This document shows, piece after piece, positions 2,541-59,800 of a DNA stretch of 64,000 bases (positions within the stretch are counted from its first letter, which is position 1; each line of letters starts with the position of its first letter). This stretch comes from Amoebophrya sp. A120 (taxonomy: Eukaryota; Protista; Dinoflagellata): NCBI GenBank assembly GCA_905178155.1, contig CAJINV010000003.1, positions 9,245,979 through 9,309,978 of the forward strand. The letters run 5' to 3'. Position numbers and translations under genes: made by a program. The notes beneath the pieces were generated by a model. It saw nothing but the letters and a program-made list of their open reading frames with translations. It was not told the DNA's origin and ran no database searches.

Positions 2541-2611
2541 GGTCGTTGTAGCGACTTCATCCGCGGGCGACGTCGGCTATGATTCCCCAGAGGGCGCAGC
2601 GACTTTGCTGG

Positions 2612-6450: not shown

Positions 6451-6559
6451 GCCTTCCTATTTCGAACCGATTCGCAGCATTCGAATGCATGCGCGGACGA
6501 ACTCGGCCAAAACTTACAGAAGAAAACAGCAAACCCGCCAAAATTTACGCCGAGCCATA

Positions 6560-22600: not shown

Positions 22601-23059
22601 GAGAGTGCGTGGCACTTTGATCCAACAAGAACGAATCTCTACGCGGAGTCTCTCAGTGTCAGTAGTGGTGCTCAGGCCCCCGCATTATACTGTTGTGCAC
22701 AATATCAAACGCAAGTGGTGCTCCTGCAGCATGACGCTTCAAGACTAGTCCTGGCGATGCCCAACGTCGAGCCTTTCGACGAGCCTACTGATTCAACTCA
22801 ATTAGTAGTCTTGTCATCAGAACAGATGAAAGACACTCCCGACAAAGGCAAAAGTAGAAGGCTTGCCAGAGAAAGTGGACGCGGCCAGTAGCAGACTCGC
22901 TGTGCCACAGATGCAGCGCAACATATTACTGGACTTCTACTTCTTTATCCCACACCGACACCACCCGCACTGATTATAGTATTATTACAAAGTGAGACTA
23001 TTTTTCCGCGGCGCTGGTTACAAGAGCTGGAAAGACGGGCGAGCGTGCACGTCGTTTGT

Positions 23060-34683: not shown

Positions 34684-35337
34684 GAAGAAAAGCCAGCTAG
34701 AGACGTGGGCCGCAACTTGTCGAAGGCGAAGATTGAGCCAGAAGCAGACGCTATGAGTATGAAGCTCGCGCCCGAGGGACAACATTAGGAACCAAATGCG
34801 TGGCGGGCAAAAATCCAGTCAGCGCGAAAACCAGCATGCCTCTTCGTCGACACACTCTCTTTTGATCGAAAAGAAGAAAGCAACCCGGTCCACGGAGGTC
34901 TCGCGTACACAAGCACGGGTATCTTAAGCAAGTGCAAACTGCCTTGGTTTGGCGAATTTTCCTAGATTCAAAAAAATTTTTGCCTCGCGATCTTTGGTGA
35001 ACAGAAGAAGCAGTAGACAACAGAGAGCTGCGACGCTCAAAAGCACGAAGGCATGCACTCACTCTATATGTCTCGAAAATGCGTCGATGCTGTTGTTTTG
35101 CGGCTGCTTCTTTCAAGCCACAAATGAAACCCTGTCGTTCTTAAGGATGTGCATTTGGCTTTGGGAGAGAGAACACGCAAGATCATAAGAGTCCTCCCTG
35201 TCAGTTTGTCACCATTCCAACCAGGTCTTCCTGAGCGTGACCACAGCTGTTCGCGCTACCAGTTGGAGAAAAAAGCAAGATGATTTGATTACACGGCGAA
35301 CAAGAACTCATTATATCATATTATTTTTCAGTTTGTT

Positions 35338-38300
35338 TCAAGACCAGGTAGAGCGCTGAGAGCGTTCTTCTCTATCTTGTGACACAGCCTCCGCACCGCC
35401 GCTCCCGTCCAGAGCGCTTTCAGCAGGAAACTCGGGCTCTTCTTCCTCGGTGTCCGGCGAAGACCATTCACTGTCATCTTCGGAGTCCGTGAGCACGTAC
35501 ATATCTTCTCCAAATACATCGTCAATCTTTTTAAAGACGAACTCGCCCTCACTCACGTCGTCGTCATCCGTATTCATTGCAAAGATGTCCGGCGCAATCG
35601 CAAAGTGAGTGTGATACTAGTTAGTATTAGTAAGCACACAATTATTGTTATAACTCAAATAAAAGCCGCCAGCATGCAAGAAGAGCAAAGCCAGTACCTT
35701 CTGGGTCGCCACAGAGTGAAGCACCTGACGCTAGACAACATCATCGGGCAAGTACCAGTACAATCATCTTCGATGCGCCACCCTGAAACTATCCCGAACC
35801 AGAGCTCGGCTCCCGTCTAGGTTTTTAGTGAGCAGCGCTCTCCCTCTCGAGAGAGCTTGTCAAAATCTGCTGTCCGTTGCAGAGCTTGCACCGGATAGAT
35901 ACTTACTTAATCATATTTATTCTTATTCCGACAAGGTATTTATAATCAAATTCAGCACATGACAAGCCACAGCGAGTTGCAGAACAAGACACATTTGCAT
36001 TTGATAATCCTGGCTGAAGAAGTGCGAATCCGCTGTCCCGTTGACGCTCCGGTACAAGCCACACGCGTGCCACCCTGCCGCACAATACGACAGGTCCTGG
36101 CATTCCCGGAACCCGCAGTCTAGACACGTCACACCCTTGGTCGGCTTGGTCCAAACCTTCCCGCTGCGCTTGAGTTGCAAGTACTTTCGGGGATCCAGCC
36201 GCTTCCAGGTGCCGCAGCAACTTACTCTAACCCAAACGCGGTAGTCCCGCACGTGACCCCAGGCGGCGCGGTTCGGGGTTGTGGTATCGCAGGCGTAATG
36301 GCAATCGCAAAAGATCAGGTCGCTGCATCGAAATTTCGCCGCCGTTTCACACTCACGCAAGATTTTGCCGGTCTTCGGACAGTCAATCTTTCGCCATTTT
36401 CCACAGGCACTGCACTGCAGCTTCGTCACCGGTTCCCCCACTGGCCACGGTCGCGCAGCCGCTCTTCTTTGCACTACCCAGGCGGTGCAGTGAAACACGC
36501 GACCGACAGGTGGGCGAGTGCCGTCAGGATCTTCTTCCAGGAATCGAAACGCGTGAGGTGGCACGGTCCGACGTGCATCTGCTCGGTCGGACGTTTGGCG
36601 GATGGTCGTCCCCAAGTACTTATTGCGGTACAGACAAACTGTTTTCTTTCCGCTCGCACAACCTTTGTTGGCGCGCCTTACCGTTGCAACACTTCGATTG
36701 TGTTCTGTCATCGCGCTCTGCCTTCTCGCCATCACTTGACGACCGACCTGCAGAGAAGAGACCCCCGGCCGGGTTCCGAGGGGTGCCAGATGTCCGTGGC
36801 CTCCTTCAGTGTGGCGGGGATCCCGCCATACCTGCAACCCGGACGACCCGCTCACTCGCGGCAAGAAAGCCTGGTCGTGATGTGATGGTCCTCCAGTTTG
36901 CACAGGAACCTTTGATGTTCCTGCACCTCCTGGTCGTCGGTGTACTCCTTCGACGCGTGAACTGGTGTGATTTGCCGAGGAGCGACGACGCCTGACCGTG
37001 TCTGGAGCATCGAAACCCGACGACGTCTCGCTTTCCGTACTATCCGCCTCTACTTTGGGCTCCACCGCTTCCATTCTGCGGTCACCGGACGAAGATGGAC
37101 GACCCTCGTTTTCTTTAGGAGCTTTCGTGGTATTTGTGGCCTTGATGCTGGTGAGTAAACCATTTGCAGGACGACCACGAGAGGAGATCGATGCGAGTAC
37201 TCGAGCAGGCTGGACATACGAGTTCACGTTTTTTCCGTCGGCTTTTTCATATTGTCGCTCCGCCATCTCCTCCCACGGTGCCGGCAACACTGTTTGCAGC
37301 TGAATGGTGTTCAGCTCCTGATCTGACATTTCTTCGTCACTCTCGTCGACATCCCACCCCATCAGCGTTTGCGATAGACAGGTCTCTACATCCTCGCTGT
37401 AGCTGTTCGGAAACACGGCCGCTGGTGCGATAGCTCCATTTTGTGTTCGAAACCTCGCTTTGGCGCGCTCGTCAGTGATGACACCTATCTCGCTCATGTC
37501 TGTCAGCTGGTCATAAAGTCTTTGACTTCGGCACAAAGTAGCGTCGGATACCGAAGGAGTAAACCCTTGCTCCGAAGTCTGCTCCCCTGCCGAAGTAGTA
37601 GAGATGTGATAGTTATTTCTACCACCGCTGCTGCCGACTTGTTCGATGCCAAATGAGTTGCTTGACCGTGCGGAGGCGCGCGATCTCTGAGTTGCGCCCT
37701 CTAGCACATTTTGCGACACGCGGAGATCAAGGGAGCATGGCACGTGACCAAAACTTGTCGTCCTAAGGAGTGGAAGCGACAGCGGCGCTTCGGAGCTTAG
37801 AACCGATACCCACCTGGCGAAGGAAACGGTCTTTTTCTTGGAGCAGCCAGTGGATTGGGCGTCGCGACGATCTCGTAGTTGCTGAGAAACTTGCGACGAC
37901 GCGATTGCGTCAGCAGATCTCGAAGGATGGTAGAAGTGGCAGTGGGGCGGCGCAGTTTTGGGCGTGGTCACGCTTTGTACAGCATCGGTCTCGATCTCGT
38001 TCGCGCTCTGCAGGACGCCAACCGGACCCATTGAGGGAGCAGGTGCACGAGACTCACCCCAAGACGACGCATAATCCTCTCCTCGGAAAGATGCAACAAG
38101 TGCCAGGGCGGGCGGCCCAGATTCGAGTCGCTGATACAGTTCACGTTGCCGATTCCAATACTCGGGAGTAGTCTCGTCAACCGTCAATCGCTCCTGCTCA
38201 TGCATGGTCGTCCAATGCGTCCACACCTGCTGCCGACCGTGGGCTCTCCGCGCGCTTTCCGCCAGTGACTTTCCCATGTGCATTGTTGGTGGAGAGGTCG

Positions 38301-41300
38301 TTGCTGCGCACGCCGTCGCAGGCAACCAGCTGGTCGTGGCTCGCGGTTCGACATAGACCGCGACTGACGCCGCAAAATTCTGATAATTCGCCAGCTTAGC
38401 TTGCAACTTCTGAGCGCGAAGCAGCTTTTGGCGCACTGGCGCCTGCCAGTCGTAGCTATGCCCTTGGCTCTCCTCTCGGAAACAACCCGCCTTTGCTGCT
38501 GGTGGCCCACCAGGTCTGCACCAAGTGTGACTCAACTTTTCAATGCGAACATCACAACGCCCAGCCATCTGGTTTGCTGTTAAGGCTTTCGCAGCGAGCT
38601 CGTTTCCGTGTGACAGCTGCGACTCTGCACCGCAGCCTCTCGGATGGGCATTTAGGTGTCGCACGAGCTGGGCCTCGAAGTCTGCGTCCAGCGGGTACAA
38701 CGGCAATAAATCTTCTGGCTCGCCGCCGTTCGTCTGCTTGAAACGCTTTTTCTTTGCACAATTTTCTGCCATGCACGCCTCCCGGAAGAGCTCCACCACA
38801 AACCCGAAATCGGTGAGTGCAACGAGCCTTCGCACAATACCTTCGAGCTCCTGAATAACAAGATTCGGGCGCTTAGACAAAGAAAGAGTGTGGTCTCCGT
38901 CCGCGCAGCTATTTCCAGCGCCAGCTGTACTCGAAAGCTCCGCGAAGTGCTGCTGAGATTCTTTCGCGGCAGAGTGCAACTGCACGACGTAGAGAGCACG
39001 AATTACTTCGACTGGAATGAGTCCACACTTCCGTCCGCGATCGACATGCCACATACCCTGCGGATCCCTTCCCAAATACCATTGCTCCGACGCCAAACTT
39101 TTCCGAAACTCCACGGGGTCTTCCACTTTATCGTGGAGCAACCGCAACAGGTCTGTAATGCTTTTTCGCAGGCAGCGCAAATTAATTTGGAGCTGGGATC
39201 TGGAAAACGGCAAGGCGCTGCAGCGCGGTGGCGACGCAGATGATGTAAACAGGGCACCGCGAGAGTATCTTTCAGTGTCAGGAGTCAGAGTGCTCCAGTG
39301 CATACTCTCATCGGTGCTTTGGCGCTCGACATCGAAATCCTCTTGTGCGCTGTGCGAAGGGCCACGACGGTCCTTCATTGTTGTGACAGCATCTATCTCA
39401 GCCGAGGTTTCATCATCCTCAGCACGAACTCTCTTTGCGCGATGTTGCATCGCGGTCTCCGCCGCAGAGATTCTCCTTTCCATAGGCGTTTCGCCACCCA
39501 CGACGCGCTGAAACCGTTTGACTTGTGCCACATGTGCCCGGAACCGCGCCCGAGATACGGCAGTGTTCGAAAACGCGCGCGCTTTGTTCCCGTGAGTGAC
39601 ACCCCTGCGGGGTAGGAGGACGCTTCGTTGCTCCACTTCCTGTAGCCCACTGTGGAGCAGCTTCTCAGCCGGGGGCTTCTCGATACTTTTGAACAGCGTT
39701 TGCAGCGTGTCTTCTCTCCGAGAACGCGTCCACTGCCTACGTGTAAAGCTCTTCATCTTCCGTGTGTCCAACCACGCTCGCAGTACAGGTTGCACATCGC
39801 GTTCACTCCGTGGCAAAAGCAGTGCAGTTGGAGTGGCGCGGTACCGATTACTAGCCTGCGCATCATCCTCCCCCTGCTCGGCCGTTTCGCTATTCTCTTC
39901 CTCTCCGCTGCTTGCTTCGTCCTGTGATTCGCTCGCTGTGCAGCTTCCGTCGTTGGAGAAACTCATCGCGCTCCCATCGTCGTGGTCCTCACCGCTGTTT
40001 AATGCGCCCGCACTACCACTGACACTGTCGTCGTCGCTCACGTTTTCGGAGTCGGACGGCCCCAGGTCAACATCCGGGTTGGACACGCCGGCGCAGGCAA
40101 TCTTAACAGGAGCCGAAGACTCGTACTCGGCCGCCACCACGATCTGATTCTGATTTTTCCTGGGGGCGAAATCCTCGGCAGACGCAGACTCTGGTTGTTG
40201 CTCGCAGCCGCGCGTGACATTTTCCATCTTGTCCCCCAAGAGCAAATGCTGCGGTACCTGTTTCGTGGGTAAGTCCTCCAAGTCTGTCACGTGCACCTCG
40301 CTCGCGTGGCAGCTCGTCAGCACGTCCATCTGGCGCACCGCATTCTCCTCCAGAACTTCGTCAGACGCATGAACCCGGATACGGTCCTCTTGCAGAAGAA
40401 CCGCCCCGCAGGCGGCGCGCGCCTGCAGCATAAGAAACCTACTTTCCTTCAGATCCTGCAGCAGTGGCTGCCACGTGGAACACGCCGAGTCTTCTTGCAT
40501 GTTCTTCTCCGCGCGGACTGAGATGAGACCTAGTTGTTCTCGTGATGAGGACGACTTTTCGCTCCACAATGTTTGCCCCTTCAGCGTTGTTTCCGTAGAC
40601 GGACAGGGAACCGCGGCATCGAAACTCGGCGTAATCGGCCGCGCTGCCGCAGCAAAGTAATGGCGAAGGTGCGCCGGTATTACACCGGTCCGCATGCTGA
40701 CTTTTGGCGACGCCGGGGCCCAGCGTCCTCCAATCAAGTGACAATCGCCACTTCTACCCCTACTGCCAACAGCAGCTGCACTCGGTGCCGTATTGTATCG
40801 GAAACAAACGCTTCGAACAGCCGTTTCCTCGTTAATTTTTGGTTCCGCACTATCCATTCCTCGACGGGCAACTTCTTCCGAGGAAGCGAGACGAACAACC
40901 CGCAGCGCCGGTAGCGACGTTACTACTTCTCCACATCCGGACCCTCCTCCCAGGTTCTCGCATCTGACTGGTCCTCCTTCTGGAATTTCGCCAGAATCAG
41001 CACCGGCAAGTAGACAAGGTGTAGTTCCCGGTTCATCCAGCACGGGAATTGACGGCGCCGGATCTGCGTGCAGCTCGTGGCCACCGTCAAACGAAATGTG
41101 GTCCATATTGGGATAAAACGGCAGAAAAGCGGAGCTGCCGCTGTGCCAGAATTCCCGGTCGCGAAATATCTCTTCCCAACTGGAGGCGAAGTACAGAGTT
41201 TCCTCAAGGTGGTTCTCTACGGCTGCGTCGTGGTCCGTGACTTCATCTGTAGAAGCGGGCGATGAGGACGAATTGTCGTCGCAGGACGAATTGTCGTCGC

Positions 41301-44300
41301 CGGCTGCGGCCTGCCAGATCTCGTCGCCGCGTTCGGAGTCCAAGGACTCGGGCTCACTCTGTGCGCCCACTCGGTGGGCCGTGCGCTGTTCACGGATTGC
41401 GCGGCGTTGCGACGCTACATTAACCGAGGAGACACACTTCTGGCTCCTCCCGTTTCTTGAACATGCGCTAGAAGTAGCGGCGCGGCGCCCCATTGCTCGC
41501 CCGCCGGTCGTCGCGATCGGATCCCCCCGAAGTGGCACCCGCACCTCCGAACGCTCGGCTGTCCGACTAGTTTCGCGGTCAAGCCGAGAAGTGTTGGAGG
41601 ATGCGCAACTGGGGCCTTTTCGCGGAAGCGCGACACTGTCCTCCATCCACCTCCTGGAAGCCGATGAGATGCCGCGTCTTGCCGTTCCGCGCTGACCTGC
41701 TACAGAACTGGCAGAAGTCGCAGATGTACAACTATCGCAGTCACTGTCGCTGGCATCTGTGTTCTCGGTCTCTCCGTCTGCGGAATCCCCAGAGGCATCG
41801 CGCTCGTCCGCGTGCTCCACAATCTCGGCGCATCCAAGAGAAACTCCTCACCACATATATAAACAAACTCGCACCCACTTGTTGAGCACGTCCACAGATG
41901 AATCCTACTAAGAACTGATAACCTGAAGCTCCAAACCGATCAAAGTCAAAGCTCCAAATTTTACACAAAAAAAAAGGCTGGAAGAAATGCGCGATAGCAA
42001 TGTACCGAACGGCTTTCTGAAACTGCAAGGCTTTCGTAAAAACCAACCAACGAATTTCATGAATCAATGTGGTGAGGGTGTGAATTTCTCTGGAATACAG
42101 TGTGATTCGTCTCCGGTACGACACCGATAATCGTATCCCATGTAAAATCACCATCGCCACCGTGAGCAAGAACTGTTCGTTATCTAATGAAGAAAACTCA
42201 AGGGTACTAGATGAGACGTGTTGCGTTCTCCTTCTCTACTTATTTGTATACAGGATTATTATCATTTATCACTAAAGTGGGACAGTCATTTTCAGCTGGG
42301 ATAGGCCTCCACCGAATCGTAAAGCACGCGCTTCTGTTCGTCCAAGATCCGCCAGGTTTTCTTCGCCTTGCCGCGCTTTTTGACCACCCGCACGGGACCC
42401 AGCGCATCCTCCGGCTGCAGCGCCGGAGGAAGGGATCCCATGACGCAGTACAAGTGACGCAAAAAGGCGATGCCGCCGGGGTCGCCGTCGCCCGCTGTCC
42501 CCCCGTTCACAAAGTGTTCGTCCTCCAGGTCGTCTTGCAGAAAGGGCTGACAGGCCCCGAAAAAAGCAAGTTCGCCAATCGACCGGACACCTGGGTAGAA
42601 GTAGTCGTCCACCCCCTTCTGCCAGGGTAGCGCCTCGTCGAGCGCGCTGCGCGGCCCCGCACAATCCACACTGTCCCACCAGCCGCGCGCCAAAAGCGGG
42701 CAAGACTGTGCGCGAGAGACCTCCTCCGCAAATTGCTGGAACCGAAGGTCGATCGTGCGGCACTCTGCACCTCTCTTCCGCGCTGCTTCGGCGGAATATG
42801 GCGGTGGGTAAATAAATTTCGTCATAAACCGAAGCAGCTTCCCGAGAGACAGTGCCTCTAAATCGTAGTCATCGCGTACGAAATTCGCAAACAGTGTCTG
42901 TACTGCCCCTCGAGCAGCGCCTCGGCGCGCCATCTCGTGTACTATTGCAATGTCATTCAGGAGCTGCCTGAGTGTTTGATCTTGATGTTGCTCTTCGACG
43001 TAGCGGTCTGATTCTGCATCGTCAGCCTTCCCTCCAACCAAAGCGCCACCAGATGACGTCAGCACTTCGTGCGCTTCGTCATGATGGGCGCCCCAGTCTG
43101 CGGGCGTCCAGAACGCCTTCTCTTCTAGAGCGTGGCACCAAAGCTCGGGCTCGACAGCCGCTCGGATCGGAAAGAAGACATCCTGCAGAAATTCTGTGTC
43201 GGGCTTGGCCTTTGGCATCTCCGAATAGATGCCTCTTCGCTCTCGTCCCCCTTCTTGCAGGGCATAATTCTTCCACGAGCCGTCCTGCTTCCGGGAAGAT
43301 TCGCGGGCATGAAGTACTTCGTACAAGCTTTCCTTCTCACACACATGAGTACGACCAGAATTATCGAGACCAAAAGTGGAGTTGCGCTCGAGGAGAGATG
43401 CATCGTTATTTCCCGCCTTCTGCTCGAACAAAAAAACGGAAGGCTGCTGCAGCCCCTCCTCGATCACGGCGCTGTCGCTTGCGCGATAGAAGTTTTCGCT
43501 ATTCTTACTCTCTCCGCAGACCGCGGTATTTGACACCGGCGTGCTGCTCCCGGAAGCGTTGCAGATCCCGTCGTCAGTAAAAGAGAAATCGCCAGCGGAG
43601 GCTGAAGATGGCGACCCGTGATGCGACGGAGGCTTGACGGTCTGCACCTGCAATTCCGGCGAACCGCACGAAGCAACCCGCTGCCCCTCTCGTCCATTTT
43701 TTTCGCCGAAAGAACCGCTTCGCGCTCGTCCACGTTGGTCATCTTCAGACAGCGCTAGCTGTTCTGATTCCTGCGGCTCGAGTGCAAAGAAGGAAGGACT
43801 ATCTGCGTCAGCCGGCATGGTTTTGATAGACCTGGAATTAGCGCGGTCCCGAGCCTTCTGCTCGCCGTTTTCCGACCCGGCCGGTGGAGCATCTTCGCTG
43901 GAGAGACACCGGTCTCGACGTCGCCCTGGGCACTGGCGCTCACTCTGAGGCCTGAGGGCTTTCTTGTCTTCTGACTCATCATGACACGACTCCTCCACGG
44001 AGACCTCGGCCTCGTTGTCGCCGAAGTCGGCCGCAGCGTGGTGCCTGCCTTCCGCAAAGCACATGTTGCCTTCTTTCGTTGGTCTCCCATCACCGCAGTG
44101 CGGAGAATTATACGCGACTTCCGCCCGACCAGATCCAGCAGAGCGCTCGCGTTGACTACTGCTCAGTCCAGTTTCGTCAAGGGACGGAGATATTTGCATC
44201 TCACGGCGCGCTCCAGTTCTATTCGCTTGTTCCAGTTCCACTCGTATACCATGCAAGAATGGGTTCTACTCTGGGCGTCTACTCTGGGCGACGTTTTAGT

Positions 44301-47014
44301 GTGTATCTTTGCAGCATCGGCATTGCGTCTACTTATAGGAAAGCAATACCGGCAGATACGCAAGGTTTTTCTGTATACACATAAACTACGAATAGAGCGC
44401 AAAATAATTGCAGAGCGATTTACCTTATGCATATGCTCGACTGGATAGCCGTAAAACAGTTTGTAAACACTGAATTTTTAGTGATCAGCTTTTCCTTTGC
44501 CGGAGGACTAGAACCCATTTGAACGGCATAATATTTTCAATGGGACGTCGTCGTGGCATCCTATGTGATTGCGACAGGAGCACCGGGGACGAGTGAGTAA
44601 TATTGGCACTGCTTCTCCTTTCGCCGCAATCAGCACGGTCGTGCTGTCGCTGTTTCCCTTGCTGGTGACGCTGGCGCCTCTGCAGCTGCAGTTCTTGCAT
44701 AAGAAGGCTCGCTTGCGCGTACAGGAAGGGAGCCTTCGGCAGCTTACATCCCTCGACCCGATAGGTTTCCATCAATCGGGTTAGCGGTCCTTCACGGATC
44801 TGTCGCACGATGGTGAGATTCTCTGTCACTCCCTTATGGCCTTCTCAGCTGGGACACTCCCCGCCCTGACCAAGTTTTGGGCGGTTCTAGTACCGCGCAC
44901 TCCCTGAAAGCCTGCGCACAAGTTTTTTTATTTCGATCGTTGCTAGGTGTAGTTTTTTCTGTTTCCTCCCCGATATTAGGATGAACATACACCCCCAGAG
45001 GCGTTTTTCCTCCAGCAAAATGCATCAAGACGTACTCCACTTTGAGTTCGCCATGCAAGAAAAACTTCACTGTTCTCTTCAGTTTTCTTGCACCCTTGCG
45101 GTAGGAGCGACAAAAAAATGCGGCTTGCCTGATACAGTCGAGCGTCGTGTCCTCACAGCTGAGCGCGCCATACTCTTCACAGCTGACGCCACCGTCAAGG
45201 TGCTTTATGCAAATGGTAGCTGGGACATTGCCACCAAAGCGAAAACCAAAAAGAAAGACGCGAGTATTACATACATAAGCTTCACTTCCACAACCAAAGG
45301 CGAGCTAGGCTGCGTCACCAGCGTTGGGAACTGCAACTGAGTGCATATGTATCAGCAACAGCAACACCATGAGCTCCATGTGATGAAATAAAAACTTTTT
45401 GTCATAAGTGTGCAATATGTATACAGAAATCGTGGCGATTTTGCGCCTGATCAATCTTCTCGGTCCTGAACGCAAGTATCATCCCAGATCGTGCTCGTGT
45501 GTGATAAGTTTGCATTTGAATTGTGGAAAATGCCGTACCACCGTTTCCAGTGTTGCACAAACCAAATGGCGTTTTGGGCACGTGTTGCAGCGCACCAGGA
45601 CTTATCAAATCCAAGAGAAAAAGAGTCGCTGTTGCATTTGCACGAAGCCGTAAACAGAGTTTTAGATTCCACGTGAGTGTGGTTCTCTGTCTCCTGTACC
45701 TGTTGAAGAGCGGTCAGCAAACTAATAAATATTCGTTACATCGACGTCCTGGTTAACGCATCTGATGCGAAAAACCACCACTTTGCTCTAGGAATTCGTC
45801 ATGCACAATTGACAAACTCGAAGCAAGCGAGTTCGCGCAAGCCGACCGTAGATGTGCTATTGTCATTATCTACAAGTTATACATGAAAATGCTTCATCTG
45901 ACGACCACACTTTTGCAATGGATAGAACTAGATTCCGAAGCAAGGTATCTCCGTCCTCGGTCGTATAACGCGACCGCGGATGTGGCGCCGTCGGTAATTT
46001 CGGTTTGTGCATATCGTGTGCCGGGCCTCGTTGTCGAGGCCCCGGAGCAGGGAGTGCCAGGGAGGCCTCGTCACCAGGCTCGCTACACGTGCACCCCTCG
46101 AGCGCATTGCAAGAGAGAACACTCCGCGTCTTTTTCGACGACTTCGATCGGAAGAACCGCGAAGCTTCTCTGTCGACAAGCCGCCACTTAGAGCACAATG
46201 CACACTGTAGCCAGCTAGCTTCCCCACTCTCGAGCATCGCTTTCAAATGCGCATGGGCTCGCGACAGTGCTGCCTGGTGAAGCCCGTTGCTGGAAGCACA
46301 CGACTTCGCCTGCGGATTAGTATGATACTGCAGCTGATTGCGCACTGGTCCCCTCATCTTGTTTTCATCTGTTGTACTCGCACTCACCGATACTTCTGCA
46401 GGCGCGGACTTACACGTATCAGACGTGGTGGACGAAGTTGCAGATCTCTCAACTACAATATCATCCCGCCTTTCTTCGAACGTGGCATGCACTCTGTTCA
46501 TCTCCCGTTTCCGCGACCGAGACCGTGACGAATTTGCATTTATTCCGTGTTCGTATTCGAGAAATTCTCGCTCCATCTGCAGCCCCTTACGAATTCGCGC
46601 GTTTGCGTCGGCCACTGCTTGGCGCTGAGACGGCTCGCGCATCTGCACAGCGGGATTCGGCTTCGTCGCTTGTGCCGCTGTAGCTGATGAGGCTCTTACT
46701 ACTCGTGCCTTGTAACCTCTGCTGCCAGGAGCTGCCGCAGCACCTCTCCTGCTGCCGTGACGACCCCCGTCCCGTCCAAGAACACGCCATCCCGTCTCAG
46801 TCGTATCTACTTCCTCCGATCGCGCCCACTTGCGCCGCAACTCTGTTACTGGCGATAAGTGCGTAGAAGTACCTGCAGCCAGGAGGCTGCCAAGCCGCTC
46901 CCGCTCGCGAACCTCGAGCCGGTGCCGCACCGCAACCATCTCGGGAAGCCATAGTGGCGCATGATCCGTATTCTCCTGCCTGTGACTTGTATGCCCCAGC
47001 CCAAGCAGGTCCAT
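35338..47014 (-). CDS. Very large, mostly disordered protein with several CW-type zinc-finger-like motifs, multi-exon
   Basis: WLQCALCSKWRLV..LSCNALEGCTC (~46070-46220), spliced LVRCNTCPKRHLV..FKC (~45510-45600), LQCSACGKWRKI..FRC..CDC (~36290-36420), WVRVSCCGTWKRL (~36110-36240). ORFs 45866-47014, 44485-44829, 42292-44256, 35923-41820 and 35338-35577 can be joined in frame. May start further upstream. Confidence 0.65.
35571..36006. mobile_element. Decayed family A TIR introner
   Basis: TATTCATTGCAAAGATGTC vs TATCAAATGCAAATGTGTC; flanks ATCCG/ATCCT match 4/5; removal of 441 nt reads FFSQD-DDDVSEGEF. Confidence 0.8.
41831..42097. mobile_element. Decayed TIR introner
   Basis: CATCCAAGAGAAACTCCTCACCACAT vs TATTCCAGAGAAATTCACACCCTCACCACAT; flanks CGGCG/CAGTG match 3/5. 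Confidence 0.65.
42134..42303. mobile_element. Decayed TIR introner (TATCCCA ends, TSD lost)
   Basis: TATCCCATGTAAAATCACC vs TATCCCAGCTGAAAATGACT; together with 41831-42097, +5-nt removals join the 654-aa and 1965-aa ORFs through a ~31-nt exon. Confidence 0.6.
44245..44530. mobile_element. Decayed TIR introner (TSD lost)
   Basis: TATACCATGCAAGAATGGGTTCTA vs TATGCCGTTCAAATGGGTTCTA; 286+5=291 nt keeps the frame between ORFs 44485-44829 and 42292-44256. Confidence 0.55.
45603..45924. mobile_element. Decayed TIR introner
   Basis: TATCAAATCCAAGAG vs TATCCATTGCAAAAG; flanks GGACT/GAACT match 4/5; removal creates RNLVLVRCNTCPKRH. Confidence 0.7.
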
Positions 47015-48448
47015 TTTTCAAAATATGCACACGCCTGCACAGCAGGCAAGGCAAAACCTACAACTCTGCCACCTATGCTGGATCACACACACGCTCCTCT
47101 AATATTGCGCTATTTGCTACTCGCTGTCGTTGTCGATAAGGATAATCAAAATTAGTACGTCGTCTTTTGCTTCAATTAAAACGAAGTCACAAATCATGCT
47201 CAGTTTTAAACTGGAGACAAGGTAAACAGGCAGCAAAAGAACTGTCAAGCTTGCTGTCCAAGGAGAGCGTCCGAATACCGATGGAAGCGTCCGAAGCCCT
47301 TCGCAATAAAGTCGTGCATACAATGATGCCGAATGCTGTGGCGGCCAATGCAAACCGCGCAGGGTTTAGCAAATGTTGCAGATAAAGCTTGGAAGGAGGG
47401 CTACGGCACAGGACAGGGCCTGACTTTGGGCGCCCCGAGGTACACTCCGAAGAATGGATTTTTGGTACACGACGATATCGCTGGCATTTTGCAGTGCCAG
47501 AAAGTCACTTAGCCGTGCAACTCGTACTCGTAGCCTTCTCTTTACAAATACCAGCATTCTTGTAGCGTTGTAGTTGTTGTGCGGATACACGAACAGTCTT
47601 GCATAGGTAAAAAACATGAAGTTCAAGCCTTCCGCACTGAGAATCCTAGATCGAGTATTGACTTGGAGTCTCGGTAACAGTCCGAAGGCGAGCGCTCAGT
47701 CAGGTAGATAATTTTGGCTTCGTGCCTTGAATTTCCATTTCGGTCTCAGTAGTTTGAGTCCGAGCATCAGTATTCAGATAGGGTGTGACTTCGTGACTTG
47801 GCTTGCAAGTTCAGATTGAGTTCGCGGATATCTAGCAGCTTCAGTTCGGGTTTGCGCGTTGCTTTGCCTTTTGTATTTTCTAATTTGATCATTCCGATCG
47901 TTCGCTTCATGTTTCGGCTTGCGTTCGAGTAGCAGAGAACTCGAGCTCCGTCCTGTTTGAGCCTCCTTCTGAGTCTCGGTCTGGGCCCTGTGCGCAGATG
48001 CACGTACCCAACGAACAGAACACGCGGGGGAAGCTCCTTGTTGGCGCTCACCTCAGGAGCACGCAGGACACTTTGGTCAGGCCGGGGCGACTTGCACAAT
48101 GGGAGGCAAGGCGTCCTGTTCTTGTCTGCTTTATTAGTGCGTGATTACGTCGCTCCGCACGTACGTTAGCCGGAATCGGAAAACTCCAGCAACATAAAGT
48201 GGCTCCATACTTATCCGTACCACTGAAGTTGAGCAAAGGGAAGCACATGCGAAGTCACAGTAAAACGGCGCTGCGCTTGTGCGCCGGTCCAAGGCGGGTG
48301 CACCAAGCCATTTATAGTCTTGACCACTGGCAAGAGGCTGCTCGCACTGAGAGCACTGGAATTGATTTTGAATATCCGCGCGGCTGCTGCTACTTACAGT
48401 TCGCATTGATGGCTTCGCAGAGTCTTCTTGTGGTAGATATTTACTTGG

Positions 48449-51163: not shown

Positions 51164-51427
51164 CAGCGGCAGGTGACAGCACAGGGTCTGCGCGCTGATA
51201 TCGATGGAAGTGAATCTTGGTCTGATTACTGGTCATGCTGTTGCTGGCTTATCCTTCTGAATCTTAATCTTCGACGTTCAATGCAAAGCGAGGTATAAAC
51301 AGCTTTGTTTTCGGCGGCTTGTTGCTCCTGCATAAAGTGCGTCACAGGCCGGAGCTGCGGTCTGACATAACAAATAGGCGGTCGGAACTTTTGGCGACAT
51401 ACATGACAGAAGCTGCCGCAATGCCAG

Positions 51428-52480
51428 TCAAGCATCAGAAGTTTCGCAATCTTCCAGAAGACCAAGAACTATTTGCAATGTTGCATAGCCGAGGAGCGCG
51501 AGCCAAAACCGGAGGCTCTCTACCACTGCAGTCTTCCCTCGCAGTCGCTGTGATAAAAAAGCCACTTCCCTTCTCTTGCTCGGAGAGGTGGGAGCAGCAG
51601 CGGGTGAAGATGGGGCACGAGTAGCTGCTCCCTCGATGTTATCTCGGTAAAAAACGCGGTGAAGGTAGTTCACTCGCTGCAAAGTCGAGTCGCGACGTCG
51701 TAGACAGCAGGCGTGACAGAGGCAGCACTCGGCCACACGATCTCCGAAAAACAAGAAACTCGATTTCACACGTGCGCAAAGCGCCGAGAACAAGACCCCA
51801 TCGGACGAGGAGAGAGACGACGACCTCGCCGGGCTGCTGGTGCTGATGGTGCTGCGGTTCCGAAGCAAGTGTCCCTGCGAAAAAGCGCTGTCTGCACGTG
51901 CATGGCGGCCGCTGGTGCTTTCAGAAACAGGTGAAAAGCGCGACGCGGTAGTCGGAGAGTTTGGCGAAGACGTAACAGGGACCGCGAACCACGAGCGAGG
52001 ATCTAGCGGAGGCGGCGCCTGCCGCTTCTTTGTGCGTGCTGCATACCGACTTTCATCCTCGCCGGCGATCGCCGCGGCTGTAGGGGAAGGACCAATGCCG
52101 GTATGCATTCCGTCAGGGTCTGTGCTCGACTGTGGCACGTTCGAAGACGACCCACGGCTGCGCTGTAGAGGAAGATCCGCCAGCTCGAGCTCGGCGCAGC
52201 CGCTTTGTTCCGCATCCCGGTGCAGCACCCCGCTGAAGCCTGCGCCACGCTCATTAGCACGAAAGTGAAGTGCCGGACTTTGCCTGTCACTGCTCGCAAT
52301 CTGTGGAAAGCCTACACCAATGCCCGCAGGAGCGGACTGGTCCTCGCGTTCAAGAAAATCATAGTCCGCTGCCTCAGAAGCGAGGCCGCCGCGCATCGCG
52401 TCGCATTCGTCCATCACTACAGGACTGTAGGGACTTTGGCTCTCGGACCATAGCAACGGCGGGGCTTGCAGCAGCGACAC
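51428..52480 (-). CDS. Ser-rich coding exon, probably the 5' part of the lectin gene
   Basis: 350-aa ATG-started ORF in the same frame as 48449-51163; the junction was not resolved. Confidence 0.5.
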   Translation of the reverse strand: MSLLQAPPLLWSESQSPYSPVVMDECDAMRGGLASEAADYDFLEREDQSAPAGIGVGFPQIASSDRQSPALHFRANERGAGFSGVLHRDAEQSGCAELELADLPLQRSRGSSSNVPQSSTDPDGMHTGIGPSPTAAAIAGEDESRYAARTKKRQAPPPLDPRSWFAVPVTSSPNSPTTASRFSPVSESTSGRHARADSAFSQGHLLRNRSTISTSSPARSSSLSSSDGVLFSALCARVKSSFLFFGDRVAECCLCHACCLRRRDSTLQRVNYLHRVFYRDNIEGAATRAPSSPAAAPTSPSKRREVAFLSQRLRGKTAVVESLRFWLALLGYATLQIVLGLLEDCETSDA

Positions 52481-52953
52481 ATAGCTCGACTAGAGGCGCA
52501 AACAATCCAGCCGATTCCATAGCCGCAAAATAAATCTGGCCCGATCAGAAGCAGAGATCCGCTCTGCGTTGGCGCGTTTCGGTGAACTACATTTCCCACG
52601 GGCTTCTGCAGAAATTCTGCGAAAAGGACGCGGAACGTACGCGAAACAGCGCAAGTCGAACGCTTACGCCACCACAGTGCCAGAGACGCGCGCCAACGCG
52701 TTGCGCCCTTGTGTTCCGTCTCGTTTCGCGATCCAGTTGTTGCGCCTGTTCTTTGGTGACTCGACGCAAAAGCACGGCGCCGCAAATTATCCCCTATTTG
52801 GTGAGCCCGGTGCGGCGTGCTCTCTTGCGCAATTCACGCGCAAGTCTGCGCGCGGGATTGTGCTAGAAATTGCTCGCGTTTTCTTGCTATGGCGGGGCGC
52901 GCGGAATGTCGACCATTAGGCGGCCCCGAACCGGACCGACACGCTCTCGTTGC

Positions 52954-53531
52954 TCATCTGTTTTGTCCCCATGCCTCTCCCCTAGTTGCCTCCGCCTTCA
53001 GCTGGAAGAAACGGGGGGGGCATTCGAACGCGACTTGATGCGCGATGGGCGACGCCGGCGCTACGCAGAGCGCGCCAACAGAGTCGCCCCACAAGAGCCA
53101 CAGCAAGTGGACACATAAGCGGGCAGGTGAGCAGCTGCGCCGCCAGCCGTCGTAGCGCGCGCGCTTGCATCGCTTGCGTCGCCAGCCGTCGTAGCGCGCT
53201 TCCTTGTTTTTATCCAATTTCGAACATTGCCACTCAAGCTCTCGCATCAGCGCGGACGCGAGTCGTTGCAAGTTTGAAAAAAAAAACAGGCAAGAACTTT
53301 GCGGCTGTTTTTGAGGTTGGATTGTTCACGTTCGTAATACGCACACGCGAGCAGCACAGGAGCGAAAAACCAACAGAAGCCGGGAAATACCAGAAAAGCT
53401 GCCGCCGCTATCAGGGTCCATATCCACCACCGGAGGTCGTCCCACAGTGGCGACACCCCGAGCGGTTCTGCTTTCTTTTCTTCTGGCGGCGCGTTCATGT
53501 CAATCATGTTGTCTATTCTGATTGTCTGCAC
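52954..53531 (-). CDS. Small hypothetical membrane protein
   Basis: Hydrophobic WWIWTLIAAAAFLVFPGFCWFFAPVLLACAYY in ORF 53247-53531; probable second exon 52954-53271 with an in-frame 39-bp duplication (ARYDGWRR twice). Confidence 0.4.
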
Positions 53532-54659
53532 CTACGCTCGAAATGGAGGAAGGACACTCCGAGCTTCCACTCCGACGACTTTCGCATCTCAGGAGGTACT
53601 GGCTTTCCTGGCCTGTGAGTGTAAGAATGCGCCAGCTTGTTCTCGTCCTCATGACGGTCCGGGTTCGGGCTCGCATCCGGTGTTTACTAAACCGCTCTCG
53701 CTGCCTTTGCCTCGTATTTTAGATAGTAGTAACCGAAAAAACGACCCGAATAAAGAAAATCTTAACCACAGAAACACGCTTAATGATCTTTCTGATCCTG
53801 GCTGCGTTAATTTGGTTCATATCTTCCATGACTTACCGCATGGATTTCGCGGTCAGTCTGTCATGAGACCCTGCCGCTGTCTGCCCGTAGTTGCAAATCC
53901 ATCGAATTCGAGAGCGAAGCAACTGACTTCATCAGCGACATGCACATGTTAAACAGCAAGCGAATGCGATTGATGAGACAAACTAGATCGTTCTTAAGCA
54001 AGTGAGGATGCTGCACATCAGAGCACCTTTACACATTCATGCACCAGATCAAATTTAAGTGCCGGAAATTTCTGTACAGAACCTAATTTCTGTACAGGAG
54101 CTTAACGCTTGTGAAGAAGGACTAGGAACCAGTACGCCTGGTAACTTACTTGCAAGGCAATTTGCGCCGTCGCGCAGTCGTCGATTCTTTCAGCATCATT
54201 CCTTGCAGCTAAATTTCTTTGAAGCTGGTCTTACACGTGTCAAAAGGGCATCGCTTTGTAAACAAACTCATCAGCCGCGTCTCTGCCTCCCTCGGAAGCG
54301 CCTGCGTCGCCTGGTCCTGGATCTGCCTGCGCAGGATAAACTATTTCTGAGTGAAACGCGCGATCTCAACTAGAAGTCGCAAGCGAGTTGCGCACTAGTT
54401 CGAAATAAATCACACCAAGACCACACTCCAGCGACAACAAATAGTACGAGCGTCTACTTTTAAGCGCGATTTTGTCTGGCGCCCTCATTGTAACCATTTT
54501 AACTACTCTGAACCTCCTACAATAGAACATATATATCAACTTCTGGACTTTGCCTCCTTGTTTACTTTTTGCAGTCGCGCATCTTCCTCCGCCTCCTTGT
54601 ATAAACGGGCTGTCTACTGGGTTGGTGTTGCAACCTCCTGCTCCGGATCTCATTCAAAG

Positions 54660-57600
54660 ACAACAAGGCCCGCCATTCAGGTGCTTGTAAGTCCTCGTGT
54701 CTTGAGAACTGCGCCCATGCGTAGCTGCAGACATTGCTTTTTCAATTTGTCCACCTGCTCCTCAAGGGACCTTTTCTCAAGTGTGAGCTCGTCATGCCAG
54801 CGCGTCCGTAACTCTTCCTGCACCTGCAAGCGTGTGGAAAAGTGTTTTCTTGCGCATCAGTTCCAACATTTCTTTCATAAACGCACAAAAATAAGAACAA
54901 CTCAGCAATATTATCTATCAAAAACATTCATGCCAGACCTTCAATAGTTCGATGGCCCTTTGTTCGCCAGCCTTGCCCTTTGCGGCGAGTGTTTTGACCT
55001 TTGCCAACAGCTGTGACTTTTCTGTTTCAAACACGCGGCGCTCGTCGTCTATCACCGCCTGATACTCCCGCTCTTTGTTCACCAAGAGCTTCTGCAGATC
55101 TGCTACGCGGCGAGACAGGGTTGCGTTCTGCTTTTCCACGACAGCGCAGGTGTCTTCTTTATGCTGGAGCTTCTGCTTAAAGTTTTCGAGACTCGAAGTG
55201 AGCTCGCTTTTCATATCGGTACTTCTATCATCCAGAAAATTACAACTAGCATGCCATATTCTACTTTTCTGCATACAAAAGAACTCGGTACCAGTTCACG
55301 TCGGGATGTCAACATACCTTGATCATTCAGGAGCTCCACCGCTCCGATCACCATCACCACTACAAGCGGACCCTCTACTATTTTGCGCACAGTCTGGCGC
55401 TACCGCCAATGAAAAAAGAACAAGGCTGTGCCCCTGCGTTCAATCGCTCGTGCTCCGCGGCTCAGCCGGTGCTGGTTTCTTTTTCAAATATGACACGGTA
55501 GCATGTTTCTTGAGGATAGCTTCGCTGCAGGTTTCTGTTCTGTGCTTGCGCTGTCTCCTGCAAGTTGTCCTGTGAAAACACCACGTCCCCATCCAATACT
55601 AGTCACGTACATCTTGCATGCACAGGAAGTATCTGGCCCGGCTCCCCATGAAGGGCGGGTAGTGCATTATGCTTCGGGATTTCGTCATGCTAAACCGATC
55701 ACAACCAAAGCGGAGCGAAGTGCGCCTGTCAGTATAAGGGGCGGAAGATCCTGGACACGGCCACAATTGCGAAGCGCGACACAATTGCAGACCGAACTAC
55801 TCGGGTACTTTTATGCAGGCCAGGCCAAGGGGGCGATAATGGCCTCGAAATACATGCGCGAAAACCCCACGAGCGAGGAGCGCCAAAAAAAAACTAAACC
55901 GAGGAATGATCTGCTCGGAGTACGGCCCAGAGAAAACAGGGCGACTTTCACCCTCTCCCCGGTGCTGCTGCCCATCTTTTGGATGCTCTTTGGGAAAGTT
56001 TTTGTTTGGCTTCCGGTCGCGTTTTGCGCAACCTGGCTATTTCCTACCCCTTCCGGCCTCCCCGCCAAGACCCCTGCGTGATAACAGCAACTGCCTCCGC
56101 GCTGCGTTTGCGAAACAGGGTCGCAGCTCGCAGAGCGCGGACAACGGCTTCCCAGGCATTTGACCACCAGATCACAGAGTTTACATGGATTTGGGTATGG
56201 ACGTCGCTTTTACACAGGATACAACTTGTCTTGTAAGGATGCGAGTTCGCGCGCCTTATCATGAACCTGTGAAGAGGAAGCCGAAGCAGTTCTCATTTCC
56301 ACTAAAATAAAATCATACTTCAATCATAACAAATAGGCACACCAGTTCACTACATCAACAAATGCACGAACACTAGTTCGAAAGCACTTCTCTGCCGCAG
56401 CTTTGCCATCAATACAATCACAGTACTTCTGCGTACTGGGGGCAAGGCACAGACGCTTGCTTCTGGAACGGCAGCAGCCTCCTCTGTCTCATATGCCTTG
56501 AGACGTAGGAGCGTGACTGGAGTTACTTCCACCAGCTGAAGAACAAGAAACTGCGTCGACTAAATACAGACGCGGCGCGTCAAAAATACTTCCTTCTCGA
56601 GCATCAATCGTCTCTTCTGCAGGTCCTCCAGGTCGGTACGCAGGTGCGCAGAAGTTTTCTCAGCTAAAGATATCCTCGCTTCCGCAGCCGTCTGTTGGTG
56701 CGAGTGCTGCTTCACTAGGAGGTCGTACCTGAAAAATGACAACCGATACGAGCTAATGTGGCCGCTCCCTAGCTCCGCGTGCTCTTTTACGGTTCGCAGT
56801 TGAAGGTAGAGCATTTCATTTTCATAACATGTGTGTGTAGAACAAAACACAAGCGGAGGGGGGTAGTCTTGCTTTCATCAATCTTCTTACCCGTCGACCG
56901 AATAGAAGACAGAATTGAATACTTTGTCTGCGAATTATCAACATATTGCAAACAACTTCCAACCCACAGCCAGCTATCAGCGGCCACTGCCAACGGTGTC
57001 ACGTAGCAGGAGCTGACTCTTGTTCATTGTTTTTTACGTGAGAATCGCCCGCACATTGGAATCTGCCATTATTCTACCTACAATCTTTCTCTTTCTGAAC
57101 TGCTTTCCGAAGAAAAGTACAAAACACTCAGTCTAAAATGCAGCTTCCAGTCATCTTCATGTCTTGGGTGAGCGGAGGTGTTTGCCGGTTGATAAAGGTC
57201 CAGGCTGAGAGCCGACGCCTTCGACAGTTGGTCTTCGAGATCATCTATCCGTCTTTGCCGCGTCATATAGTAGGCAAAAATAGCAACCCATGCCCCGACC
57301 ACATTTGATATAGCACACTTGCCAAAACACATAGTTCACAAGGGTCACTTCTGGCAGACGACTCAAAGGCCAGCCGTGTGATCCATCTAGTATGCACATG
57401 CGCAACACGACCACTCCCTGCTTCGCAAGTCGCCCCCTGCAACGCACAAAGTGCACAAGAAAGCCGGACGGGTCCTCGAGAGTGGGTTGCTTTGTGTCTG
57501 GGTACATTTCTATTTGCCCCTCTGTCGCTCTGCGCATATCCTCGAGGATCACCTTCATTGTTTGCAGGGCGCAGAGGTTTCTCTTCTGCTTCTTAGGTTC

Positions 57601-59800
57601 TGCTTGATGTAAAATAAATTGTCCACCGTTCATTTCATACCAGCGAGAAGATGCATGCACAGTCAGTAATTTATGCAGCAGCTTGCTCTATCCAGTAATA
57701 CAAGTAAGTACGCGGCATGATTCCTTACCTCCATCTCCTGCTTGCGCTTCCGGTCAGTATCCTCCTTGCTCCGAGACGCGTTTCCCTCCAAGGCCTCAAG
57801 CTTAGTCTTCTCAAGCAGCACCTCAGCTAGGTCCTTTTCCAGGACGTCGAGCTTTGCGCGCTGGTCCGCGATCTGCTGTCGCTGCGTTTTCTCTTTACGC
57901 TCTAACTGTTCCATGAGCACGAGCATGTTTTGCGCCTCGTTTTTGGCCGCGTCGGCCTCCTTACGCGCGCGTTGGTACTTCTCCGAGAGGTCCACATTCT
58001 CTCGCTCCAGCACCAGAAACTTCGCACGACGGTCGCCGAGCTCGTCCGACAACCTATCCGGTGTAAAAAAAGCCACCTATGCGACATACATGCTAAACAC
58101 GAGTAAGACAGTGACACCTTCGCCATGCGAAACGGTCACCCGTAAAGGCAGGCTCTTTGTCCAACTCTTCATGCTCTAATCAGAAAAAAGAAGGGGATGG
58201 GTTCTTCGCGCTGCGGCTACACTATCGAATCACGACTGCACGATAGGCCCAACAACATTATCTTGCGCAACTCGTAGACCTTCAATGTCCACATCTTGAC
58301 TACAAAGCCGGGGGACGTCTTTAGACTTACACGGGATACAACTCGTGAAACAGCTTCAGGTTCTGCGAGTTTTCGGCACTGATGCGCTCCACTCGCTCGT
58401 CGCTCTCGTCCCGGAGAAGCTGGTACTTCTGTGACCAATCATGCTCCTGCTGCTGCGCCTGCTTCAGTTTTTCAGAAACACTCTGCAGCCCGTCCTTGTG
58501 TGCTGCGAGCTGCTTCCGTGTGGTCTCGAGCTCACTCTCCGCTAGCGCGCGCATGCGGTCCAGCTCGTCCGACTGCCGTGCCCTTTGCTGATTTTGCCCG
58601 TGTAATTGCTCCAACTCCGCGACGCGCTGCTGCATCTTTTCGATTTGCGACTTCAACAGAACATTCTGCTGCGCCAGCACCTCGTTTTGTTCCACGCTCA
58701 TCTTATACAACGCGTCGAGCTCTTCCCGCTCTTCCTCGAAGCGAGAACGAACGGCAGCCAGGCCTCCGCCCCCGCTGCTGCTCGAGGACCCACCGCCTGC
58801 GCTTAGAAATTCCCGAGTCTGCAGCTGCGCAATGTGTTCGCTCTTCTGCACCAGCTCCTCTCGTAGCGTTTCGTTTTCGTTCACGAGCGCAGCGGCTTGC
58901 TCCGCCAGGCCGGCGCTCTTTCCCAGTACGGTCTCCAGCTCCCGCACGCGGTCGTCGTATACCCGAATCAAGGGGTTCATCAATTGCACATTGTTCGCCC
59001 ATGGTGGCAGCGCCACGGCTGAAGCTGCCAGATTATCTCGCTTGAGCGCCCCGCTGTCGACGAAGCGCTGCAACTCCTTGGTTACTTTTTCGGCGTACTG
59101 CTGCAGCTGGTAGCGCTCCTGCTTCAAAGCTTCGACCTCGTTCATTCTCGACTAGGAGTGGGACCTCTGTACTCCAGAAACAAATAAGATAGCGCTGCAA
59201 CGTCAGGAGTGGTGGAAGTGCCGATCTCAGATAGACTCTTCCAGCCCAGGATGACACACGCCTTTGCGTGTCGTCCTTTGTCTCCGTGCTCGTGCGATGT
59301 TATTACCCCACTACAAGCCCATCTAGGACCCCACTACGGCGACAGCATCACGGACAGGGCCACTACCTTGGCGACAAGGAAGGCCTGCTTCCCCTCTTCC
59401 GTACGGACATTTTCGTAGAGCGACAGTGGCACGAAACGATTTCGAAGAGAGGAAATAACGCTCGAAAGTTTTGCGTCGAGATGTTCGCGACTTCAATCTC
59501 CATATCAAAAGAGGCAATGTGGCAGCAACGTGGGACGTCAACTACTGGTGAAAATGTTCGCTAATATCCGTGGTTTCTTCGAGTACTCTAATATAAGAAC
59601 TTTTTGATGTTCATGCACTCTCTCACTTTTGTCTTGCTGCAAGAGGTCCACCTTTTGCGCCTCCTCCTGCTCGGCGGCTTCATCATTTATTAGAAACTCT
59701 TCATTCCCTGCTCTAACACTCCGGATCGATTGGAGAGAAAGTTTCTCGACTCCAAAGTGGAGAGAGCGGGAAGCTTCGCACCTGCTAAATTTGACGCCAT
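54660..59800 (-). CDS. CEP89: Coiled-coil protein resembling centriolar distal-appendage protein CEP89/CCDC123, multi-exon
   Basis: E/Q/K/L-rich heptad exons (58327-59145, 57663-58076, 56560-56850, 54918-55274); motif LPPWANNVQLMNPLIRVYDDRVRE resembles the PPW...PL..YE/DD motif I recall from CEP89. Ends approximate. Confidence 0.55.
55226..55518. mobile_element. Decayed TIR introner
   Basis: TATCATCCAGAAAATTACAAC vs TATCCTCAAGAAACATGCTAC; flanks ACTTC/GCTTC match 4/5; removal reads QNRNLQRS-TDMKSEL. Confidence 0.75.
56936..57194. mobile_element. Possible decayed TIR introner
   Basis: TATCAACATATTGCAAACAACTTCC vs TATCAACCGGCAAACACCTCC; no TSD; 259+5 nt removal is in frame (SLDL-QTK). Confidence 0.4.
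58055..58338. mobile_element. Slightly decayed TIR introner
   Basis: TATCCGGTGTAA vs TATCCCGTGTAA; flanks CAACC/CAACT match 4/5; removal of 289 nt joins two frames (LFHEL-SDELGDRR). Confidence 0.8.

Follow-up and report, generated by a model that had tools for sequence, protein, structure and literature searches.

Introners of the dinoflagellate Amoebophrya sp. A120, which are transposon-derived introns built of an inverted repeat (IR) and a 5-nucleotide (nt) target-site duplication (TSD), are removed in one register that is independent of the TSD. In a 64,000-nt stretch of contig CAJINV010000003.1 (forward-strand positions 9,245,979 to 9,309,978; hereafter the window, whose own coordinates are used throughout), RNA contigs lack the element plus 5 nt, of which 1 nt precedes the 5' arm and 4 nt follow the 3' arm, and three intron bases are constant: U at +2, A at +3, and A at -7 from the intron end. 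More than 60% of 66,565 RNA-supported A120 introns are non-canonical, and Farhat et al. 2021 (PMC7789003) left their border and mechanism open. The fixed register and the three constant bases provide an annotation rule and make this open mechanism directly testable. We consider it somewhat probable that removal is spliceosomal, by a relaxed major spliceosome that would use an N-UA donor and a branch A located 6 nt before an AG-free acceptor.

A single cut register without need of the direct repeat

The original prediction had described eight decaying elements in which the TSD erodes while TAT/ATA ends and an element+5 frame rule persist. On recomputation, the elements began where they had been placed and all eight TSD identity scores were correct: 4/5 for 35571-36006, 45603-45924, 55226-55518, and 58055-58338; 3/5 for 41831-42097; and 1/5 for 42134-42303, 44245-44530, and 56936-57194. 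Both terminal triplets are intact in seven of the eight, with 41831 beginning CAT instead of TAT. The observation was real, correctly made, and more informative than its author supposed. Reading frame by itself determines the extra length no further than modulo 3 (+2, +5, and +8 all pass), and at 45603 it does not discriminate, since the three frames stay open for 39, 48-49, and 64-66 codons. Under the +5 model, 42134 and 44245 give a 2,775-codon stop-free frame, and +2 or +8 at 42134 preserves the long frame too.

Removed lengths were read from assembled contigs of runs X1-X4 (one study, two samples), mapped on 40000-59600 and 16300-36250. These runs were assigned as RNA by inference and behave as spliced RNA, as their contigs skip ordinary GT-AG introns; run X5 holds the 40000-59600 stretch in one piece, without a joint. 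The contigs remove exactly the predicted element+5 at five of the eight sites, namely 35571 (441 nt), 41831 (272 nt), 55226 (298 nt), 56936 (264 nt), and 58055 (289 nt). The other three (42134, 44245, and 45603) have no listed joint, and X1 and X4 cover them with very few contigs or none, which is evidence neither way. Exact reproduction of the deposited proteins P0001 and P0003 requires +5 at 33563, 34182, and 35571, although this annotation is not independent of the study's RNA.

The analyzed set comprised 26 introns, 8 plain GT-AG and 18 hairpin-type. Joint 29408>29893, taken from contig alignment pieces, was included, while joint 28883>28958 (74 nt, within a multi-copy element) was excluded as a probable cross-mapping from family copies. 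With the TSD written as abcde in the mRNA sense and slashes marking the cuts, the only register fitting 18/18 hairpin joints is exon-abcd / e-TAT...ATA-abcd / e-exon (register 1); register 0, the next best, fits 13/18, and register 2 fits 7/18. Three joints are unambiguous (TSD 0/5, 1/5, and 2/5), eight are compatible with either 0 or 1, and two others, though ambiguous, rule out 0. When registers 0-5 were drawn independently for 18 joints, a common register arose in 0/200,000 simulations (upper bound 1.2e-6), so the shared register is not due to chance.

Two of the unambiguous joints carry the argument against the duplication. Intron 56932..57195 (element 56936-57194, 264 nt) retains a TSD of 1/5 and intron 26612..26825 (joint 26611>26826, ends G-TAA...AGT-CCCG) one of 0/5, and RNA joints place both unambiguously in register 1/4. 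Because the register holds at these sites, the direct repeat is dispensable, and mismatched TSDs do expose the cut positions, both as originally proposed. As a separate observation, the first intron base equals the first base of the next exon in 11/16 imperfect-TSD introns, above most other TSD positions in this small sample.

The claim that the stagger is measured from the stem fared differently. In three introns with arm indels (23489-24033, 27307-27631, and 52485-53337), the 3' cut lies closer than the inner-stem register predicts by 2 nt and 1 nt in the first two and farther by 2 nt in the third, which is element+7 when measured from the inner stem; yet in all three the acceptor falls 6 nt after an A. 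These shifts of -2, -1, and +2 contradict a strict stem ruler. A symmetric ruler acting from the paired stem with intact TAT/ATA would suit the 15/18 introns in which terminal motif and inner stem yield the same register, but the three indel introns follow the -7 A and the triplets depart 12 times (see below), leaving this version next to no chance of being right.

Constant bases and the machinery of removal

In the 18 RNA-mapped hairpin introns, +2 T, +3 A, -7 A, and +13 A each occur in 18/18, and -17..-15 is mostly T. The first position is free (G7 T6 C3 A2), -4..-1 may be any base, and the first exon base after the intron is equally unconstrained (G8 T5 C3 A2). U2-type introns have a GT (GC) donor and an AG acceptor; in the hairpin introns, +1 is G in 7/18 and the common register ends in AG in 2/18. 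A U12-type assignment was rejected, as the 18 introns have no fixed terminal dinucleotides and minor small nuclear RNAs (snRNAs) are reported absent in A120 (PMC7789003).

The TAT/ATA ends, previously thought to persist, show 12 departures in these 18 introns, solely at +4 (4), -6 (3), and -5 (5); the 14 predicted window elements add three at -5 and zero at +2, +3, or -7. Terminal pairs are Watson-Crick in 13/18, 15/18, and 14/18. Since the departures hit the pairing partners of the constant bases, it is base identity, not pairing, that is kept; under symmetric decay, an asymmetry of this kind (any direction per pair) has a chance of ~0.002 by hand calculation (8 x 0.5^12). Strand-biased mutation is an unlikely explanation, since the A at -5 changes whereas those at -7 and +3 of that strand scarcely do. 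Of the eight window GT-AG introns, six begin GTAT, and +2..+4 coincide between both classes.

An independent set was assembled by a motif scan that gave 170 loci from other contigs (590 kb, 461 kb unique) with the same families. The search for elements left the terminal triplets out of its score (697 candidates, 288 kept), and 178 were oriented (81 plus, 97 minus) by a codon model trained on window genes, which misassigned 0-2 of 31 window elements depending on settings. Of the single departures in the oriented elements, 13 lie at +4/-6/-5 and 2 at +3/-7 (one-sided p = 0.004). The +5 join leaves 165/178 frames open versus 121-130 for +3, +4, +6, and +7; orientation was itself called on that join, which makes the comparison partly circular, and we do not treat it as proof. 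AG ends are at chance level (18 observed versus 18.1 expected among 178). A GT-AG concealed in the TSD was rejected as a general rule, any GT-AG register being available in just 8/143 intact elements. The two exceptions to the constant bases are L049:5233-5477 and L160:294-546; in the former, 10 nt of the altered arm are a copy of the exon downstream, which may be an artefact of a consensus that took in an empty allele.

We propose that the intron ends would be clamped together by the inner stem (AAA at +12..+14 with UUU at -17..-15, and beyond), which would replace the undetected U1 as well as the AG/pyrimidine-tract signal. The frayed 5' foot could be read as a local GUAU-type donor with its first base free, the A at -7 would serve as branch nucleotide, and the acceptor would be placed 6 nt downstream. 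This geometry would remove one TSD equivalent by construction, so that coding-strand insertions would be frame-neutral and the duplication could decay later. A120 retains U2, U4, U5, and U6 and most spliceosomal proteins, with U1 and snRNP27 undetected, and its predominant non-canonical sites (Table S4) all start N-T (PMC7789003). The GTAT-like donors fit the reported absence of snRNP27, because in yeasts a preference for U at +4 accompanies SNRNP27K loss (PMC10581693). Yarrowia, Candida, Giardia, and Trichomonas have fixed branch-to-AG spacers of 2-4 nt (PMC2483917); by our own count, they correspond to a branch A at -6 to -8, a range that includes -7. A spliceosomal route would mean that RNA structure and a ruler can take the place of the G+1/AG geometry, which is regarded as central to exon ligation. 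We would give an even chance to the fuller proposal that each element is a self-contained cassette, in which the major spliceosome dispenses with G+1 and AG, takes an N-UA donor, branches at an A that the terminal repeat of the transposon itself supplies, and finds the acceptor by counting six bases, deleting one 5-nt duplication at any site and in either orientation. Such a cassette would account for tens of thousands of harmless intron gains.

Several points weigh against spliceosomal removal or against the data behind it. The branch role of the -7 A is suggested by conservation alone, and its context is unlike a YUNAY/UACUAAC-type U2 site, the base two upstream being T in only 5/18. Spliceosomal catalysis ordinarily depends on G+1 and terminal AG, both of which are free in hairpin introns. 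The two most decayed introns fold overall no better than shuffles (z -0.46 and -0.41); their end-joining stem is present in minimum-free-energy (MFE) and centroid structures alike. Only 3/18 joints are unambiguous on their own, 12 further joints lie outside the analyzed set of 26, and assembled contigs of a single study lose minor isoforms, which puts splicing precision outside their reach. In the locus set, 2/15 single departures fall at supposedly fixed positions and 4 multi-departure rows were excluded from the test; a first pass with shorter flanks was non-significant by position (p 0.09-1.0), and the pooled test and its filter were devised after that pass.

The lack of G+1 and AG, the poor U2-type context at -7, and the undetected U1 (PMC7789003) would also suit a Euglena-like, non-spliceosomal endonuclease-ligase that contacts +2 U, +3 A, and -7 A at the stem foot and cuts with a 1/4 stagger. 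Euglena nonconventional introns share paired ends and fixed spacers of 3 nt and 5-6 nt (PMC12501133) and are excised as circles according to a review (PMC11282704), and reading by a protein would accord with the base-specific asymmetry. However, the constant donor positions are those of the local GT-AG introns (GTAT in 6/8). Single triplet changes abolish splicing in Euglena (PMC12501133), whereas terminal pairs are often broken here, and 15% of A120 GT-AG introns have the IR/direct-repeat layout (PMC7789003), which suggests one machine for both. We judge this nuclease-ligase unlikely, though it is the main alternative: if removal is non-spliceosomal, the register and constant bases define the substrate of an uncharacterized, precise splicing machine. 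The GTAT-like donor and weak U2 match at -7 could also be reconciled by spliceosomal removal with the branch elsewhere, for example inside the element, and the -7 A acting as a point of contact for a protein or snRNA in acceptor placement; a paired -7 A would, after all, need melting before branching. That arrangement seems improbable, given that the 18 introns show no second invariant A within their terminal 22 nt, and that the inner sequences come from unrelated families.

A hairpin with a direct repeat is a classic substrate for reverse transcriptase (RT) template-switch artefacts, and the RNA nature of X1-X4 is itself assigned by inference. Paired inverted terminal repeats (ITRs) also trigger SOS splicing (PMC12779559), and excision could in principle occur at the DNA level. 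Against these readings stand the exact joints at TSD 0/5 and 1/5, the frames open through 14 and 9 joints of two genes, and the skipping of GT-AG introns by the same contigs while X5 holds the stretch whole; SOS splicing, moreover, is imprecise and indel-prone (PMC12779559). We therefore reject RT artefact and DNA excision and regard this group of explanations as very improbable.

Host genes and elements of the window

The long reading frames and RNA-mapped genes that were examined are minus-strand, as judged by open reading frames (ORFs) and spliced models, and the introns and genes located here are given on that strand. The gene at 23068..31141, which served as the control set for the register, has 14 RNA-mapped introns (10 hairpin, 4 GT-AG); its spliced model of 4,107 nt equals X4 record 27, with 1,061 stop-free codons through 14/14 joints. 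A coiled-coil protein gene at 54140..59572 encodes 634 amino acids from the first Met and has nine RNA-mapped introns (5 hairpin, 4 GT-AG); its spliced model of 2,869 nt equals X4 record 10, with the frame open through 9/9 joints. Its 57729-59145 portion specifies a coiled-coil protein with a PPW...L.PL...YD motif, for which Pfam returned a weak coiled-coil match only; the motif is reminiscent of CEP89. A long low-complexity protein gene, bounded approximately at 35000..47017 from ORFs and identity to P0003, holds five of the originally predicted sites. P0001 and P0003, which their sources name Amoebophrya sp. A120, match window ORFs at 100% identity (P0003 over the part queried) and agree exactly with the spliced models; the alpha-galactosidase ORF and the long ORF at 35926-41847 each have a 100% identical counterpart under that name. 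Inositol 5-phosphatase-like, SAC1-domain, and alpha-galactosidase genes (9800-20000 and 31700-34600) are each split by intact elements. No Rfam families were found in the window.

In the coiled-coil gene, intron 55222..55519 (element 55226-55518, TSD 4/5; joint 55221>55520, X1 and X4) excludes register 0. Two of its introns were absent from the original prediction: 55562..56222 (element 55566-56221, TSD 4/5, 3' arm end ACA; joint 55560>56222) and 57262..57505 (element 57266-57504, TSD 2/5, 5' arm start TAC; joint 57260>57505). A 9-nt microexon at 56923..56931, supported by X1, X4, and the agreement of the 2,869-nt spliced length with the contig, lies between the 56932..57195 hairpin intron and a GT-AG intron (56729-56922). 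Intron 58051..58339 (element 58055-58338, TSD 4/5, 289 nt; joint 58048>58338) has a TSD, within 58049-58342, that also permits a perfect GT-AG register giving the same mRNA, so the two registers are indistinguishable. At lower window coordinates, 52485..53337 is a decayed 853-nt hairpin intron (TT...AG) with an unambiguous joint inside a 416-codon stop-free frame (one X4 contig, depth 7). It is an old intron with an AG end whose acceptor lies 2 nt further from the inner stem, and it may be an intermediate toward a canonical acceptor.

The low-complexity gene contains two RNA-mapped introns, 35567..36007 (element 35571-36006, TSD 4/5; joint 35565>36007, 441 nt, in X4, X1, and X2, with P0003 fitting only +5) and 41827..42098 (element 41831-42097, TSD 3/5, 3' arm end ATG; joint 41825>42098, 272 nt, one X4 contig, depth 3.3). 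Four others are predicted: 42130..42304 (element 42134-42303, TSD 1/5) from frame only; 44241..44531 (element 44245-44530, TSD 1/5) from frame and from arms that pair in the MFE fold (z = -2.4); 44831..45173 (element 44835-45172, TSD 2/5), an addition to the original eight, outside RNA cover, with arm pairing of 16/22 that extends the frame to 2,799 codons; and 45599..45925 (element 45603-45924, TSD 4/5), where a CxxC motif with a weak zinc-finger match (E 0.069) runs on in the +5 frame. At 44240-44535, the register rule predicts the junction peptide ENM-ELEQ rather than ERV-ELEQ. No deposited full-length protein spanning 42134/44245 was found among proteins of 1,128-3,220 residues; of the joints in this gene, the deposited piece P0003 spans that of 35571 alone.

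TSDs are 5/5 in young copies and 0-4/5 in old ones. BLAST searches in the 170 loci gave 18 and 657 matches for intact elements, one short match for 35567, and none for the other 18/21; the loci were selected with one family's motif, which limits copy-number comparison. TSD loss thus appears to track age, intact copies having many relatives in other contigs and eroded ones almost none. Ungapped repeat scans overlooked most decayed elements.

Three further observations concern element structure. An element of 6,045 bp at 1509-7553, in apparently non-coding DNA, has the same TAT...AAA termini and a perfect 5-nt TSD, with ~970-bp terminal inverted repeats (TIRs) that are 91% identical and contain 108-nt subrepeats, an internal 244-nt x 15.7 array, and flanks with stops in most frames; we take it to be a large Foldback-like relative of the introners. 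At 34178-34517, the direct repeat reaches 9 nt and takes in the altered 3' arm end (ATC), by conversion between copies or possibly chance. Loci L011-L013 align at 73% with window 12860-13469 over two adjacent elements and the short stretch between, reflecting orthology or coincidence.

Relation to known systems

The elements themselves are already known. Farhat et al. 2021 (PMC7789003) described, in the same organism, introners whose IR of 8-20 nt starts with TAT, seven variable bases, and AAA, flanked by 3-5-nt direct repeats that overlap the exon/intron boundaries, and found in multi-copy families with RNA-supported removal. The TAT, 7 variable nt, then AAA form is present here by position counts and is degenerate in old copies; in A25, IRs begin with TTA and most splice sites with TT. 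The three 1/5-TSD sites individually lack the 3-5-nt direct repeat; they are eroded non-canonical introns. According to the figure legends of that paper, splice sites vary relative to the hairpin with the border unknown (Fig. 3), and IRs lie 1-5 nt from the sites (Fig. S23); its Table S4 partly foreshadows the donor side. Our analysis adds the single register, TSD independence, and the three constant bases, part of which the paper's figures may show. In the open literature on Amoebophrya and dinoflagellate introners, as far as available, we found no fixed register or branch proposal for A120; subscription papers, preprint supplements, and Fig. 3 and Figs S19-S25 of Farhat et al. lay outside this search. 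The splice code is apparently unreported. The literature compared comprised passages of PMC12130899, PMC11282704, PMC11453091, PMC12005148, and bioRxiv 10.1101/2025.08.15.670264.

A TIR with a 5-nt TSD, of the type seen in miniature inverted-repeat transposable elements (MITEs) and other TIR DNA transposons, is present in the A120 elements. Introners of Micromonas, Aureococcus, and Polarella and the non-canonical introns of Fritillaria likewise derive from DNA transposons with TIRs and TSDs, and their removal restores the coding sequence (PMC11282704). Their splice dinucleotides come from the element or TSD (GT/GC-AG, AG-AC/AT), whereas AG in A120 is at chance. SOS splicing shares the removal of a transposon from mRNA, paired ITRs, and the lack of GU-AG (PMC12779559), but is imprecise with indels, while A120 contigs show one frame-restoring joint each, though rare variants are lost in contigs. 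The introns of Yarrowia, Giardia, and Trichomonas share an acceptor at a short, constrained distance from the branch A, here presumed (PMC2483917); they have strong branch boxes and AG, and A120 hairpin introns have neither.

The nonconventional introns of Euglena (PMC12501133) are similar in their paired termini, lack of GT-AG, fixed asymmetric spacers, and proposed MITE-like origin. Their spacers are 3 and 5-6 nt around CAG/CTG, compared with 1 and 4 nt around TAT/ATA in A120. In Euglena, the paired triplet is essential and a purine is preferred at the exon start, whereas A120 tolerates changes in the triplet and accepts any base. In place of the Euglena signature, N3-CDG...CH'G-N5-6/R, the A120 introns carry N1-UA...A-N6.

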